Shown here: piece after piece, positions 4,656-10,281 of the stretch
Numbering within the stretch: position 1 is the first letter of the stretch
How the letters are laid out: each line of letters starts with the position of its first letter
NCBI GenBank assembly: GCA_902384455.1
Contig: CABMCB010000055.1
Coordinates: 1 to 10,360, forward strand
DNA from: an uncultured archaeon
Lineage (GTDB): Archaea > Altiarchaeota > Altiarchaeia > IMC4 > SCGC-AAA252-I15
DNA length: 10,360 nt
Direction: 5' to 3'
The notes under the pieces: model-generated
Database searches by the model: none
The model's input: the letters and a program-made list of their open reading frames with translations, nothing else
Told to the model about the DNA's origin: nothing
Position numbers and translations under genes: made by a program

Positions 4656-5408
4656 ATGAAGCACAACGTCAATTACGTCCTATTCGGACTATTGTTGGTA
4701 ACATTGATGATGATGGTGATTTTGTCGTTATACTACAGAATCACCTATGAGCGGCTGAACGACAGGTACACGGAGGCGCGGCAGAATGCCTTGAACGTGG
4801 CCGGCAACCTTTCGACGACTCTTACTGATGTGCAGGCGAAGGAGGCTGCTCTTAATGAGCGTGAGAAGGAGCTTTTGGACATCATAAATCAGCTTAACAT
4901 TTCAAAGACCCGGGAGCAGTCGTTGGGGAATTATTATACGGACGTGCAAAGCAAGACTGAGACCCTGCAGCTTATGCTGAACCAGACTTCGCGGGAAAGA
5001 GACATGTACATAAAGAAGTCGCAGGATGCGACTACTGAGCTGACGATGTGTCAGGCGGAGTATGGCGTCGTCAGCAGGAGGTTCGAGCAAGTCAACAGTT
5101 CTCTTAATGAGGTTAAGCAGTTGAGTTCTGATTTGGCGAGGGACGTAAGTAGCTTACAGGCAGGGTATGATGAGGCTTCGGATAACGTGGGCATAGGTTA
5201 TGACCGGCTTCTTGAGTCATTGGATACGGCAAGCGACATGAGGAGTCAGTATCCCGCGTGCTCGGGCGCGATTCAAAACATTACCAGTCCTTTGTCTGAC
5301 GTCAAAACCAGGTTTAATAAAGTCAACACTGGATTGGACAACATGGCGAGGTACATGAACCTGTCTGTTGCGGAGGCACGGGAGCTTAAACAGGCGGTGA
5401 GCACCTGA
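4656..5408 (+). CDS. Membrane-anchored long coiled-coil protein, first gene of the moxR/vWA operon
   Basis: N-terminal TM VNYVLFGLLLVTLMMMVILSLYY, then about 220 aa of heptad-like helical sequence with six sequons (NLS, NIS, NQT, NSS, NIT, NLS). ATG 4656, preceded by GGTGG, is preferred over GTG 4638. The stop overlaps the next start (TGATG). Confidence 0.85.
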   Translation: MKHNVNYVLFGLLLVTLMMMVILSLYYRITYERLNDRYTEARQNALNVAGNLSTTLTDVQAKEAALNEREKELLDIINQLNISKTREQSLGNYYTDVQSKTETLQLMLNQTSRERDMYIKKSQDATTELTMCQAEYGVVSRRFEQVNSSLNEVKQLSSDLARDVSSLQAGYDEASDNVGIGYDRLLESLDTASDMRSQYPACSGAIQNITSPLSDVKTRFNKVNTGLDNMARYMNLSVAEARELKQAVST

Positions 5409-6319
5409 TGGACGTAACAAGGAAGATTAGGGACGTAAACAGGACTCTTTTGGTGTCGGAGTTATTCCAGATTATCCTCAATTCCCTGATAATCTTCCTC
5501 ACGTTAAGCATAATACTTTCCATACTGGGCATAACGCTTTTTCTGGGACTCATAGTCGCAGGAATGGCCTTCATCATCATGGTCGTTTGGGATGAGGTTA
5601 AGAGGGACCCGTTAAAGAGGATTAGTGAGGTTTATCCTACGCTTAAGGAACGCGTAAGAACCGCCTACGACAACCGCCACCGCCACAACCTAATCACGGA
5701 AAGCCTCAATATAGACGTATATAAGCGCATGGATTTGATGGAAGACGGAAGGTTCGTAGACGACACCCGCATAATATACAAGGTGGTGGGCTCGTTCATA
5801 CTCATATTCCTGCTTCTGACCGTCACCGTAATCGACCTCCACGGAATACTCGCAAACATAATAGGAAGCGACGGCCTACTTAGGAATCAGTTGAATCAGG
5901 CAGTCGACCGGGTTACGGGAGGACAGTTCGACGTGACGGGAAACAAGGGTTATGAAGGCAACGAGAACTATAAGACGGATCAGGAGAAGGAGAAGCTTGG
6001 CGCTGAATCCGGCGGGGATAGGCCGGGGTACAACGAAGGGCCTATACCCGGTAAAGGCGGGGGTGTGGGTTCGGATGGCACGCAGGATATTTTCGGCGAA
6101 GCTTCTTCGGCCAACTTGAATGGGAAGGATCTTAATGTTAAATTGCATCCGGAGTACGGCGGAGACATAGATATTGAGGAGGTTGCCGGAGGAAAGAAGG
6201 CCGGTGACTTCGTTATCGGCGAAGTGCAGTCGACGCAGGTGTGCGAGGAGTGTGCCGTAGGGCCTGAGCATGCGGAGATTGTGAGAAAATATTTTGAAAG
6301 CATACTGGAGGAAAAATAA
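5408..6319 (+). CDS. Membrane protein of the type found in MoxR-DUF58-vWA operons (about 3 TM helices, Gly/acidic low-complexity region, C-terminal E-I-V-R-K-Y-F motif)
   Basis: 303-aa ORF coupled on both sides (TGATG, TAATG). Two N-terminal TMs, then [13 protein letters not shown], a third TM, a Gly/Glu/Asp-rich region, and the C-terminus [25 protein letters not shown]. The family assignment is from memory of similar operons, not from a search. Confidence 0.8.
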
Positions 6320-7449
6320 TGGTAGGAGGAAAAAGTCTTTGGGACTCTGTCTCAGACAAGGATACTAAGAAGAAGGACAAGGAACCTGAGAAGGATAAAG
6401 GGAAAGTCTCGGAAATCAAGAGTTTGCTTGGCGACGACAACAGCCCGCGCTTCAGCATAAAATCCGGGGGAGACGACAGGCAGGCGCTCCTTTATGAGAC
6501 TTACAACAACATCCAGGGGATAGTCACCGGCATACGCCAGGAGGCGGCTAAAGTCATCATCGGCCAAGACGACGTTTTGGAGCAGATGCTTATTGCCATA
6601 TTCTGCGACAGCCACGCTTTGCTTGAAGGTTTTCCGGGGTTAGGAAAAACTTTGACTGTCAGGACGCTTTCTTCGATCATGGACTTGAAGTTCAGGAGGA
6701 TACAGTGCACTCCGGACTTGATGCCTTCAGACGTAATGGGAACCTACATCGTCGACGCAGACTCAAGCGGAAGAAAAAGCTTCCGATTCGAGGAAGGACC
6801 CGTCTTCACAAACGTGCTTCTTGCCGACGAGATAAACAGGGCGACACCCAAATCACAGTCGTCTCTGCTTGAGGCCATGCAGGAGAGGCAGGTTACTGTG
6901 GGCAACGAAAGCCGCAAGCTGGACAAGCCGTTCTTCGTTCTGGCAACCCAGAACCCCATCGAAATGGAGGGCACTTACCCTCTGCCTGAGGCGCAGGTGG
7001 ACAGATTCCTACTGAAGATTATGGTGAAGTACCCCACATTCGAAGACGAAGACTTGATTGTCAGCAGGTACGCCATGGGCTAGCAGCCGCAGATTAAGAC
7101 TGTCGTAAGCAAAAGCCAGGTTCTTGCGCTGCAGGAATTGACCAAACAGATGCCTCTTTCAGAAGAACACCGCAAATACGCCCTAAAATTAGTCTCAGCC
7201 ACACGCCCCAAAGAAGGCAACATAGCATCACAATACCTCGACTACGGAGCAAGCCCCAGAGCAAGCATAGGACTTGTGCTAGCAGCCAAAGCCCGCGCAC
7301 TAATACAAGGACGAAACTACGTCAGCCAAAAAGACGTTGAAGCCATGGCATACCCAGTCTTGCGCCACCGCATAATACTCAACTTCGAAAGCGAAAGAAA
7401 GGGAACAAGCCCAGACGAGGTCATAGAGAAAATTATTGGGGGAGTGTAG
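6319..7449 (+). CDS. moxR: MoxR-family AAA+ ATPase, 376 codons, interrupted by one in-frame TAG at 7081-7083 (readthrough, split gene, pseudogene or base error)
   Basis: Walker [24 protein letters not shown], Walker [32 protein letters not shown] (Arg finger). After the TAG the same frame continues [22 protein letters not shown]...ATRP...YGASPRAS...[11 protein letters not shown], the normal MoxR C-terminal lid. Track ORFs 6319-7083 and 7138-7449 share a frame with no other stop between them. Confidence 0.93.
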
Positions 7450-8330
7450 TGCCAGTCGACGCCGGCTTCCTCGAACAGCTGAAAGAGCTTCAGCTAATAA
7501 CCAGAAAGAAAGTCTCAAGCGCCTACTCTGGAGGCCGCGCCAGCATTACTTACGGCAGGGGCATTGAGCCTGTTGACCACAGAGAGTATTTTCCGGGAGA
7601 CGACTTCCGCCTTATCGACTGGAAAGTGTATTCGCGTACCGAGAAATTGTATATCCGCCGGTTTGAGGAGGAGAGGGATTTGACCCTCCACATTCTTGTT
7701 GACGCCTCAAGCAGCATGGATTTCGCTCACAGGGGGATGAGGAAGTTCGATTACGCCGGAAGCTTAGCCGTCGCGTTTGAGTTCGTGCAGATTAACGCCA
7801 ACGAAAAGTTCGCGCACGCCCTATTCTCTGAGCGCCTAAGGGACGTGCTTGCGCCAAACAAAGGCAAGCACCACCTGTTCAAGGCGATACAACTGATAAA
7901 CCACGCCACTTTGTCTGGTTCCACAAGGATGGACGTGTGCGCCGCACAGTACACGAAGATGATTAAGACCAAGTCGTATATCGTAGTGCTGTCGGACTTC
8001 ATGGAACCCCTTGACGCACTAGAAAACGGCCTATACCGGATGGCCAAGCACAGTAAGGAGATGGCTATTGTGCAGGTTTTGGATCCTTCTGAGATTGAGC
8101 TTGCTTGGGGTGATGACGTCAAGTTCGAGGACATTGAGACTGGTGCTGCGGATACGACTTATCTTTCGCCTCACTTCAAGAGGAATTACCACAGCAAGGT
8201 TGAGGAGCATAATGCCGCAGTGCAGGGCATATGCGAGGACATCGGAGCGGATTTCCATCAGGTCACCACTGACCAGCAGCTTCTTTCGGCGTTCATCGGC
8301 ATAATGGGGGGAGGCACTCACCATGGTTAG
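7449..8330 (+). CDS. DUF58 domain protein (vWA-like MoxR partner)
   Basis: Signature GRGIEPVDHREYFPGDDFRLIDWKVYSRTEKLYIRRFEEER, MIDAS-like LVDASSSM, VVLSDF and VQVLDPSE. The GTG start overlaps the moxR stop (TAGTG). Confidence 0.93.
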   Translation: MPVDAGFLEQLKELQLITRKKVSSAYSGGRASITYGRGIEPVDHREYFPGDDFRLIDWKVYSRTEKLYIRRFEEERDLTLHILVDASSSMDFAHRGMRKFDYAGSLAVAFEFVQINANEKFAHALFSERLRDVLAPNKGKHHLFKAIQLINHATLSGSTRMDVCAAQYTKMIKTKSYIVVLSDFMEPLDALENGLYRMAKHSKEMAIVQVLDPSEIELAWGDDVKFEDIETGAADTTYLSPHFKRNYHSKVEEHNAAVQGICEDIGADFHQVTTDQQLLSAFIGIMGGGTHHG

Positions 8331-10281
8331 TGTGCTGGGGCTTCTTACGGGGCTTTTCAGTTATCCTGCAGCACTTCTTGGGGCGTTCCTCATTTTCCCC
8401 ATCATACTTCTTTACCTGCTTAGGCCGCGCCCCATCGTCGTCCGGTTTCCCACCATAATGTTCATCCAGAAGACTGAGAAAAGCAGGCGCTTCAACACCC
8501 TCTTCAACCGGTTCGTCCGCGACCCCCTGCTGATAATCCAGATACTCGTCATACTTCTCCTAACACTTTCCGCTGCGGGACCGTTCATTCCCCTTAAGGA
8601 ACCTAAGACTGGTCCGGCCGCGGTAGTCCTCGTTTTGGACGCGAGCGCCAGCATGAAGTCGACTGTTGCGGGGCAGACGTACTCGCGGTTTGAGGCCGCA
8701 CGGCGTAAGGCGGTTGACGTGGTTAAGGAGCTTCCTTCGGATAGCACTGTGACTTTGATGCTTGCTGAGAATATGCCTATTACTGTTGTCGCCGACGCTG
8801 CGCCGGAAAGGGCGATTGACGCATTAAGCAAGGTTTCTGCTTCCGACACAAAGACTAACTTGGGCGACGCCATGCTTTTGGGGCGGGACACTTTGTCCAA
8901 GTCCACTCTCGCCAGGCAGATGATAGTACTATCAGACTTCGGGCCTTACCAGGGGCTGGACCCGTTTGTCGCAGCCAAAATAGTCGCCATAAACAGCGTT
9001 GAAGTCTCGCTTGTGAACGTGGGCGAAGGCGAAGACAACATCGGAATCATAGGGTTTGAGGCCAAGAGGATAATCACAGACCGCACTAAACTCTCTGTTT
9101 CCACGGCCGTCGGAAACTTCGGTCCTGAGGGGCGCAAGGTTGACGTCACTTTGACTGTGGACGGAAGCATCGTCGGTTCGCAGCAGAAGACCATTAAGTC
9201 GGGTGATGAGGAGTTCATCTATTTCAGCCCCAACGTAACCAACGACCCGCATGAGGTTGTTGTTTCGGCGTACACCGACGGCGACCTGCTGAAGGTGGAC
9301 GACGACGTCCGCGCAGTAATACCGGCCGTAACTTTCCACAGGGTTCTTTTGATTACTCGGGAGGATGGAGACAAATTCCTTAAGGACGCTTTGGCCGCTA
9401 TTTCCACGATTAAATTCGACGTTGTGGTGCCGCCTGTGCTGCCTGCGTTTTCTAACTACGACACAATCATTATTGGTGACGTAGACCCCACCAAGATTCT
9501 TCCAGGAACATTCTGGAACCTTAAGAACCACGTGGACAACGGCGGCTCCGCCATAATAATGGGGTCGGACGGACTGGGCGGCATTAGAAACCGCGACCTA
9601 GAAGACATACTTCCCGTGCTCGTCGGCGAAAACGTCGTCAACAAAGACGGAGTAACGGTGAAATCGGCCGCAGACCACGACGTCCTATCCGACGTCACAT
9701 TCAAGACCACAGCAGTCAACCGATACTACCTCACAATACTCAAGGAAAACGCGACAAGCCTTGCGGAAGGCAAAAACCAGACGCTCATATCACTATGGAC
9801 TTACGGAGGCGGCCGAGTCGCATTCTTCGGTGTGAATCCTACGGCCAGCTGGAGCAACTTCCATCTTAGCTCGTCGTTCCCGATACTTGTCGCCCAGCTT
9901 TTGGATTACTTAAGCAGCCCAGCCGAACAGCTTTCGGTGCATTCGTTGAATACCGGCGAGTACCTTGCTTTGCCTCGCGAAATGAACGTAACCACCCCCG
10001 CAGGCAGGGAAGTTAGGACGCGGAACTTGTTCGCTGACGCCACGGGGATATACGTGATTAACTTCGGCAATAGGATTGATTCCGTCGCAGTCAACCTTCT
10101 TTCGCCGGCGGAATCCAACATAACAACGCCCACAAACAAAGACCTGACTTCAGCGGAAAAATTCACTCCAAAGACAGAGTTGACAGAAGTCAAAAAACCC
10201 CTTTACCCGCTTATTGTGGCGTTCGCGTTAGCCGTAATATTCATTGAAGCCTACCTTTACAGGCGTAGAGGAGCACTATGA
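8323..10281 (+). CDS. BatA-type N-terminal double-TM plus vWA domain membrane protein, with Ig/CARDB-like and class I glutamine-amidotransferase-like regions and a C-terminal TM
   Basis: BatA-like N-terminus FSYPAALLGAFLIFPIILLYLLRPRPIVVRFPT...LLIIQILVILLLTLSAAGP. MIDAS VLDASASM...T...VLSDF. Beta-rich DNIGI...VGNFG...LTVDG. GATase-like fold YDTIIIGDV...LKNHVDNGGSAIIMG. C-terminal LYPLIVAFALAVIFIEAYLYRRRG. RBS GGAGG upstream. Confidence 0.9.
   Translation: MVSVLGLLTGLFSYPAALLGAFLIFPIILLYLLRPRPIVVRFPTIMFIQKTEKSRRFNTLFNRFVRDPLLIIQILVILLLTLSAAGPFIPLKEPKTGPAAVVLVLDASASMKSTVAGQTYSRFEAARRKAVDVVKELPSDSTVTLMLAENMPITVVADAAPERAIDALSKVSASDTKTNLGDAMLLGRDTLSKSTLARQMIVLSDFGPYQGLDPFVAAKIVAINSVEVSLVNVGEGEDNIGIIGFEAKRIITDRTKLSVSTAVGNFGPEGRKVDVTLTVDGSIVGSQQKTIKSGDEEFIYFSPNVTNDPHEVVVSAYTDGDLLKVDDDVRAVIPAVTFHRVLLITREDGDKFLKDALAAISTIKFDVVVPPVLPAFSNYDTIIIGDVDPTKILPGTFWNLKNHVDNGGSAIIMGSDGLGGIRNRDLEDILPVLVGENVVNKDGVTVKSAADHDVLSDVTFKTTAVNRYYLTILKENATSLAEGKNQTLISLWTYGGGRVAFFGVNPTASWSNFHLSSSFPILVAQLLDYLSSPAEQLSVHSLNTGEYLALPREMNVTTPAGREVRTRNLFADATGIYVINFGNRIDSVAVNLLSPAESNITTPTNKDLTSAEKFTPKTELTEVKKPLYPLIVAFALAVIFIEAYLYRRRGAL

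Follow-up and report, generated by a model that had tools for sequence, protein, structure and literature searches.

Organization of the moxR locus

The window, i.e., the whole stretch of 10,360 nucleotides that was analyzed, corresponds to one complete contig (C55) of an Altiarchaeota genome assembly of 2.41 Mb in 103 contigs (92% complete; hereinafter referred to as G000). A moxR gene interrupted by an in-frame stop codon lies in the following arrangement:

5408..6319, + strand: DUF7502 membrane protein (Pfam domain), coupled to moxR and upstream of it
6319..7080, + strand: 5' part of moxR, 254 codons for an N-terminal extension and then the AAA+ ATPase core (AAA_3, E=2.5e-62)
7081-7083, + strand: in-frame TAG (residue 255), at a variable position of the linker
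7084..7449, + strand: 3' part of moxR, 121 codons for the AAA lid domain (AAA_lid_2, E=1.4e-22), with the final TAG
7449..8330, + strand: DUF58 protein, with a GTG start that overlaps the moxR stop and a terminal TAG
8323..10281, + strand: membrane protein with BatA-N, VWA, and DUF7408 domains (Pfam)

An earlier note on this DNA had described a TAG at 7081-7083 within moxR, and this codon was confirmed in the assembly, in frame with ATG 6319 (TAC GCC ATG GGC TAG CAG CCG CAG ATT AAG). The 121 open codons that the note had counted beyond it were also found, up to the TAG at 7447-7449 and including the GASPRA and VLRHRI motifs, and the TAGs at 7447 and 8328, which it had regarded as true stops, are indeed the ends of moxR and of the DUF58 gene, respectively. 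As assembled, MoxR is a 254-aa protein without the lid. The AAA_3 core and AAA_lid_2 share one reading frame only when the TAG is read through; with X at this codon, the product has 376 aa and carries AAA_3 at residues 99-232 and AAA_lid_2 at residues 302-372 (Pfam). Residues 71-373 of the read-through protein align to PDB 2r44_A (E=6e-85), and this alignment sufficed to locate the stop. The TAG is one base away from GAG, CAG, AAG, TCG, TTG, TGG, TAC, and TAT.

By its domains and its operon, moxR of the window is of the MoxR-proper type, and the product of an intact gene is presumably an AAA+ chaperone working with DUF58 and VWA partners. Among 19 loci of relatives, the moxR orthologue was accompanied by genes for DUF58 (19/19), DUF7502 (18/19), and BatA/VWA (17/19) proteins. 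The operon layout with DUF58 and VWA/BatA partners has been described for MoxR-proper (PMC11834572), and the window shares with it the AAA_3 and AAA_lid_2 domains, the DUF58 and BatA-VWA genes directly downstream, and the full-length alignment to 2r44_A; it differs in the single in-frame TAG between core and lid, which was found in none of 38 orthologues.

Within moxR and the DUF58 gene (6900-8400), silent positions form patches rich in either A/C or G/T, with switches from one kind to the other, and the third-position G+T content is 0.35 before the TAG and 0.65 after it. Elsewhere in the window, the minus strand at 3-2927 encodes a cysteine-rich, secreted protein that is at least 975 aa long, contains long Thr/Ser repeats, and runs off the contig end.

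Conservation of moxR across the stop

All 40 relatives searched had moxR matches, and in 38 of them the match was of orthologue grade (61-72% identity) across residue 255. None of these 38 contained an internal stop; the nearest relatives belong to other genera (approximately 70% identity), and a young readthrough signal would escape this comparison. The only other stop in the table of 40 relatives was a single TAA inside the match to a moxR paralogue with 44% identity (genome G010, C1:13482-14417).

The alignment of orthologues that had been proposed earlier thus gave 38 of 38 matching relatives without a stop at the site, with a variable residue there. Opposite the TAG, the 19 orthologue loci had nine different residues (F in seven, K in three, I and E in two each, and S, Q, V, N, and G once each), while 119 top MoxR homologues, all longer than 300 aa, had F (27), K (25), E (17), T (13), I (7), and others including S, V, and A. 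Named homologues belong to Ca. Altiarchaeota. These counts bear out the earlier description of the linker as poorly conserved. Its statement that neither half of moxR shows motif decay held as well: near-invariant MoxR columns were retained at 36 of 36 positions past the stop and at 87 of 90 before it, and the difference in identity between the C- and N-terminal parts ranked 58th of 119, i.e., there was no decay past the stop. This leaves three possibilities for the stop: a sequence error, a very recent origin, or readthrough.

Metagenome contigs, among which records very close to G000 may be lacking, contained no match to a degenerate pattern spanning the moxR site. The five window proteins tested formed single-member clusters, each known from C55 alone. 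In public sequencing runs, three covered a share of 0.05-0.10 of the region in 151-base pieces, none of which spans position 7081 or the stop in the pelota gene described below.

Decoding of UAG

Site-specific decoding of the UAG by pyrrolysine or a suppressor tRNA was the first option named in the earlier note. In 25 of the 119 homologues the residue aligned with the stop is Lys, as such decoding might suggest, and genes could be missing from an assembly that is 92% complete. Profile searches, the results of which refer to this 92% complete genome, gave 21.6 bits for PylS (cut-off, 178.15) and 18.6 bits for PylB (cut-off, 348.2), both far below threshold, and no match for PylC or PylD. PylS did not exceed its cut-off in any of 61 genomes of the group. 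PylS, PylB, PylC, and PylD are the markers used in a preprint on genetic code 34 (bioRxiv 10.1101/2024.09.30.615893).

CUA, UUA, or UCA anticodons were absent from the 131, 140, and 188 ARAGORN calls made without introns, which cover assembled tRNAs only. In intron mode, the sole 'tRNA-Pyl' (CUA) called at default thresholds was a chimeric call fusing two Arg tRNAs that lie side by side on a phage-like contig, and other CUA calls were either chimeric or obtained at relaxed thresholds only; ARAGORN with -ps85 and long introns returned 1,513 calls, which were regarded as noise. Our own stem-loop scan for a CUA tRNA yielded one match, which was not tRNA-like, and in the Rfam tRNA search 150 of 197 candidates were scored.

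TAG is in ordinary use as a stop in G000. The terminal stops of 954 ORFs of at least 300 aa, counted with shadow ORFs and phage-like contigs included, comprised 463 TAA, 294 TGA, and 197 TAG; in two relatives, TAG ended 230 of 756 and 87 of 417 ORFs, so that TAG is not depleted in G000. The archaeal release factor aRF1 is intact, with 363 aa and visible NIKS and GGQ motifs. Genome-wide reassignment of TAG, which the earlier note had disfavored, is indeed unlikely, with TAG as a normal stop in 197 of 954 long ORFs.

Compared with archaeal pyrrolysine recoding as presented in the preprint (10.1101/2024.09.30.615893), the window likewise has a conserved gene of an ordinary kind interrupted by an in-frame TAG; in contrast, neither PylS/B/C/D nor a CUA tRNA was found in G000, TAG is a common stop, and interruptions by TAA and TGA are as frequent as those by TAG. 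In the literature, searched by title and abstract, no recoding was found for Altiarchaeota, and the group is absent from the text of that preprint, the supplements of which may list further genomes. With neither Pyl genes nor a credible CUA tRNA in hand, and with six of ten clean internal stops in G000 being codons other than TAG (see below), decoding of this UAG as an amino acid appears highly improbable.

Programmed readthrough and a two-chain MoxR

A second option, programmed readthrough toggling between a lid-less and a full MoxR ATPase, draws on the sequence context UAG-CAG. CARYYA is a readthrough context motif. CAR follows just 4 of the 197 terminal TAG stops in G000, but it is similarly rare after TAA (7/463) and TGA (9/294), and the six bases after the moxR stop (CAGCCG, i.e., UAG CAG CCG) deviate from CARYYA at the last one. 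The stop was conserved in 0 of 38 orthologue-grade matches. No stable fold was predicted 3' of the stop (7081-7190; z=+1.46, with 188 of 200 shuffles folding as well), and there were no Rfam matches in the window. With no conserved stop, no stable downstream hairpin, and no Rfam match, this option gained no support, and we give it almost no weight.

The third option was a two-chain MoxR in which the lid is made by restart at TTG 7138 or ATG 7150. The stop does lie between the two Pfam domains, and a 99-aa product starting at ATG 7150 is on record, but solely as a gene call on C55. A restart would lose residues 255 to 273 or 277, which align to 2r44 without gaps and include P257 (conserved in 105 of 119 homologues) and a basic residue at 261 (K in 90 and R in 20 of 119). 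Moreover, no split form occurs in the 38 orthologues or the 119 homologues (protein search range, 206-658 aa), and the restart codons have no properly spaced GGAGG-like site, such as precedes the true moxR start. A split MoxR is accordingly hard to credit. Recoding and a split protein are, even taken together, improbable.

The moxR stop thus showed none of the tested features of pyrrolysine recoding or programmed readthrough and behaves as an ordinary nonsense substitution; neither pyrrolysine nor readthrough can be argued for in moxR. The last of the earlier options, a nonsense mutation or a sequence error, gained support, since relatives carry sense codons at the site and neither Pyl nor suppressor machinery turned up, most of the outcome that the note had said would indicate an error or recent pseudogenization.

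Internal stops in other genes of the assembly

Intact ORFs of two relatives (G012, 1.72 Mb; G026, 1.04 of 1.39 Mb) were aligned to G000, and the reverse comparison was made. The screen was genome-wide for these two relatives, for G026 in part. To be counted as clean, a stop had to be the sole one in at least one alignment and to lie opposite a residue. Antisense shadow-frame matches of the first screening pass were removed by a gene filter. In the relatives, eight stops were dropped (two in one three-stop shadow-frame alignment and six opposite gaps or in two-stop alignments), and in the self-comparison of G000, two stops opposite gaps were dropped.

Ten clean internal stops were identified in 223,365 aligned codons of G000 (three TAA, four TAG, and three TGA), against none in 217,060 codons of G012 and none in 127,310 codons of G026 (rough P=9e-5 vs. 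G000). Comparison of paralogues within genomes revealed four further stops in G000 and none in the self-comparison of G012. The cross-genome screens showed no excess of frameshifts (1 vs. 1). The rate in G000 is approximately 4.5e-5 clean internal stops per aligned codon, or about 1 per 22,000 codons. At this rate, roughly one in eight stretches of about 2,900 codons, the size of the window, would contain such a stop. The statement in the earlier note that no other internal TAG occurs was made for the window, where it holds; it fails genome-wide. The sites besides moxR are as follows:

Cross-genome screen: C2:1311, C90:24544, C53:3309, C39:43101, C102:3298, C32:26021, C92:29850, C27:19963, C56:31687
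Paralogue comparison (including surface or membrane proteins): C24:5163, C64:858, C96:6455 (TGA in a surface-protein gene), C98:79

An intrinsic stop scan of G000 was also carried out, and in the nine candidates checked with Pfam no domain extended across the stop. C42:12943 is a possible further stop-split case.

TAA interrupted the genes for a PLD-family protein, SSB, and TrpA; TAG interrupted those for aspartate kinase, MoxR, Rrp41, and a DUF2085 protein (C56; a weak case at 31% identity); TGA interrupted those for an m5C methyltransferase, pelota, and LeuC, the last resting on paralogues of 31-36% identity and on full-length family matches. Opposite TAG stood E (aspartate kinase), L (Rrp41), D, and the variable site of moxR; opposite TAA, E (TrpA), Y (SSB), and also K; opposite TGA, G (pelota and LeuC) and C (m5C methyltransferase). 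At the PLD site the lost residue would be Tyr, while the relatives have Phe. Every assignable lost residue is one base from its stop. As one stop type lies opposite different conserved residues, no fixed decoding can supply them. Other TAG-split genes, the search for which had been suggested earlier, do therefore exist, but TAA and TGA are equally frequent among the split genes and the residues are beyond any single decoding, which points to scattered point changes.

Family searches gave one match each in G000 for Rrp41, pelota, and TrpA. Internal stops in these genes were restricted to G000; none was present in the relatives with a match, which numbered 38, 37, and 35, respectively. In the supplement of a study on S. 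islandicus (PMC6249222), Rrp41 is marked as essential and pelota is marked 'u', read here as unassigned. For the aspartate-kinase family, one stop fell within the match in 14 of 34 relatives; these stops are probably terminal, and in the one inspected (G012) the stop was the last codon of the match. This family is thus a poor control.

Kind of base change

G>T is required in six of the eight unambiguous stop cases, compared with 39% predicted by codon opportunity (P=0.046). Four Tyr/Cys sites lying in A/C-rich stretches are ambiguous: the share of G>T/C>A is 10 of 12 when they are taken as C>A (P=0.002) and 6 of 12, which is not significant, when they are not (P=0.32). The absence of transitions is not significant by itself (P=0.10). 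In a parallel comparison of missense changes, the G:C>T:A share was 12 of 50 in G000, 5 of 39 in G012, and 13 of 69 in G026. Many of the stops may have arisen by a G:C>T:A change of the 8-oxoguanine type.

When guanine is oxidized while a library is being prepared, G>T/C>A changes are the known trace (Costello et al., 2013; PMC3616734). G000 resembles the artefact described there in its scattered single-base changes with an apparent lean of this kind, seen in one data set only. The published artefact, however, has a low allele fraction, is biased by read orientation, and is centered on CCG, whereas contexts in G000 mostly do not fit CCG (1 of 10 stop sites, with the stop codons themselves constraining the context); it is also described, in that paper, for human libraries, whereas the present case concerns the consensus sequence of a metagenome.

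On the basis of the genome-wide G>T trend and of Glu in 17 of 119 homologues, the codon lost from moxR would most likely be GAG (Glu), CAG or AAG being less likely candidates.

Two Pro>Thr changes in conserved proteins, each one C>A step, may be missense counterparts of the stray stops. S-adenosylmethionine synthetase (C71:28983-30134) has GKNT in place of the GKNP found in 27 of 27 relatives, an anecdotal difference given that 16 of 28 sequences carry such a private change. In Cbf5 (C23:3949-4899), the change lies in a conserved motif with Pro in both relatives (2/2).

Wrong bases in the consensus or real stop alleles

Several single-copy core genes each have one clean stop but neither indels nor a further hit, which does not resemble gene decay, and consensus errors are therefore ranked first. 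The pattern as a whole, with no excess of frameshifts and no decay in moxR, is unlike that of aging pseudogenes. The moxR TAG, real in the assembly, is most likely not present in the organism, and the scattered stops are probably single wrong bases fixed in the consensus. This one Altiarchaeota assembly contains at least ten single-base nonsense changes at scattered sites, and the moxR TAG would belong to these. A wrong base derived from DNA damage, amplification, read error, or a minority molecule, presumably a non-majority error, was probably fixed into the consensus, and living cells would make a normal full-length MoxR of 376 residues. The implied load is approximately 1.3e-4 per base, a high value considering that the assembly includes a 248-kb contig. 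Repair of the stops by RNA editing was discarded as an explanation, as it would need several different base changes.

That high load for a long-contig assembly also speaks for real alleles. The moxR stop could be a very recent nonsense mutation that inactivates the window copy, leaving a protein without the lid and the sensor-2 region and involving no recoding, and the other stops could be real, too. They would then be tolerated because the lineage, with its high G:C>T:A mutation rate, carries additional copies of its chromosome or has recently passed through a bottleneck. A single-base origin and the lack of decay in moxR would agree with this, as would the local A/C versus G/T patches seen around stop sites. 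Contig C51 of G000 carries three intact moxR paralogues, so that a real loss of the window copy could be tolerated. On the other hand, stops are also present in Rrp41, pelota, and TrpA, which are single-copy and intact in every relative with a match, and Rrp41 is listed as essential in S. islandicus (PMC6249222). There is neither a frameshift excess nor a second hit, and G>T and C>A leave the A/C versus G/T balance unchanged, hence the process behind the patches would not be the one that made the stops. We regard real alleles of this kind as unlikely, but as the next most probable reading.

General leakiness of all three stops, with real in-frame stops tolerated in housekeeping genes, would account for at least ten stops in otherwise intact genes, some of them probably needed, and the broken genes include that of pelota, which acts in ribosome rescue. 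All three codons are, however, ordinary stops in normal proportions (463 TAA, 294 TGA, and 197 TAG), aRF1 is intact with its NIKS and GGQ motifs, and one codon would have to yield different conserved residues. A passage in a review (PMC8211752) names selenocysteine and pyrrolysine alone as demonstrated archaeal readthrough. Such leakiness seems very improbable. The broader proposition that the stops are real, i.e., that a natural G:C>T:A mutator carries nonsense alleles in approximately 1% of its conserved genes, including Rrp41, pelota, and TrpA, and survives by multiple chromosome copies or by leakiness of three stops, is in our judgment improbable; by titles and abstract openings, no archaeal case of such nonsense tolerance was found in the literature. 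If the stops were fixed, core genes of a living archaeon would carry nonsense alleles, and stop tolerance or masking by polyploidy would be directly testable.

Gene callers split genes of G000 such as those for Rrp41 and TrpA. A background of about one nonsense change per 22,000 codons means that any lone stop or odd residue from this assembly needs a check against reads.

Other features of the assembly

Approximately 0.57 Mb of G000, in 13 contigs longer than 15 kb, had little or no strong protein match to the two relatives. Three large tRNA arrays of about 22, 31, and 35 genes were located at C4:2065-9860, C38:18856-28629, and C59:49310-58891, and these arrays hold the rare anticodons Arg-ACG, Phe-AAA, and Ile-TAT. 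The three contigs had no strong protein match to the two relatives and are probably phage contigs in the bin. Further, the best-scoring models for LeuC (C92:28617-30059) were the leuC models of bacterial type, and C63:7206-8285 encodes a dehydroquinate synthase of the AroB type; both genes are possible imports into the archaeon.
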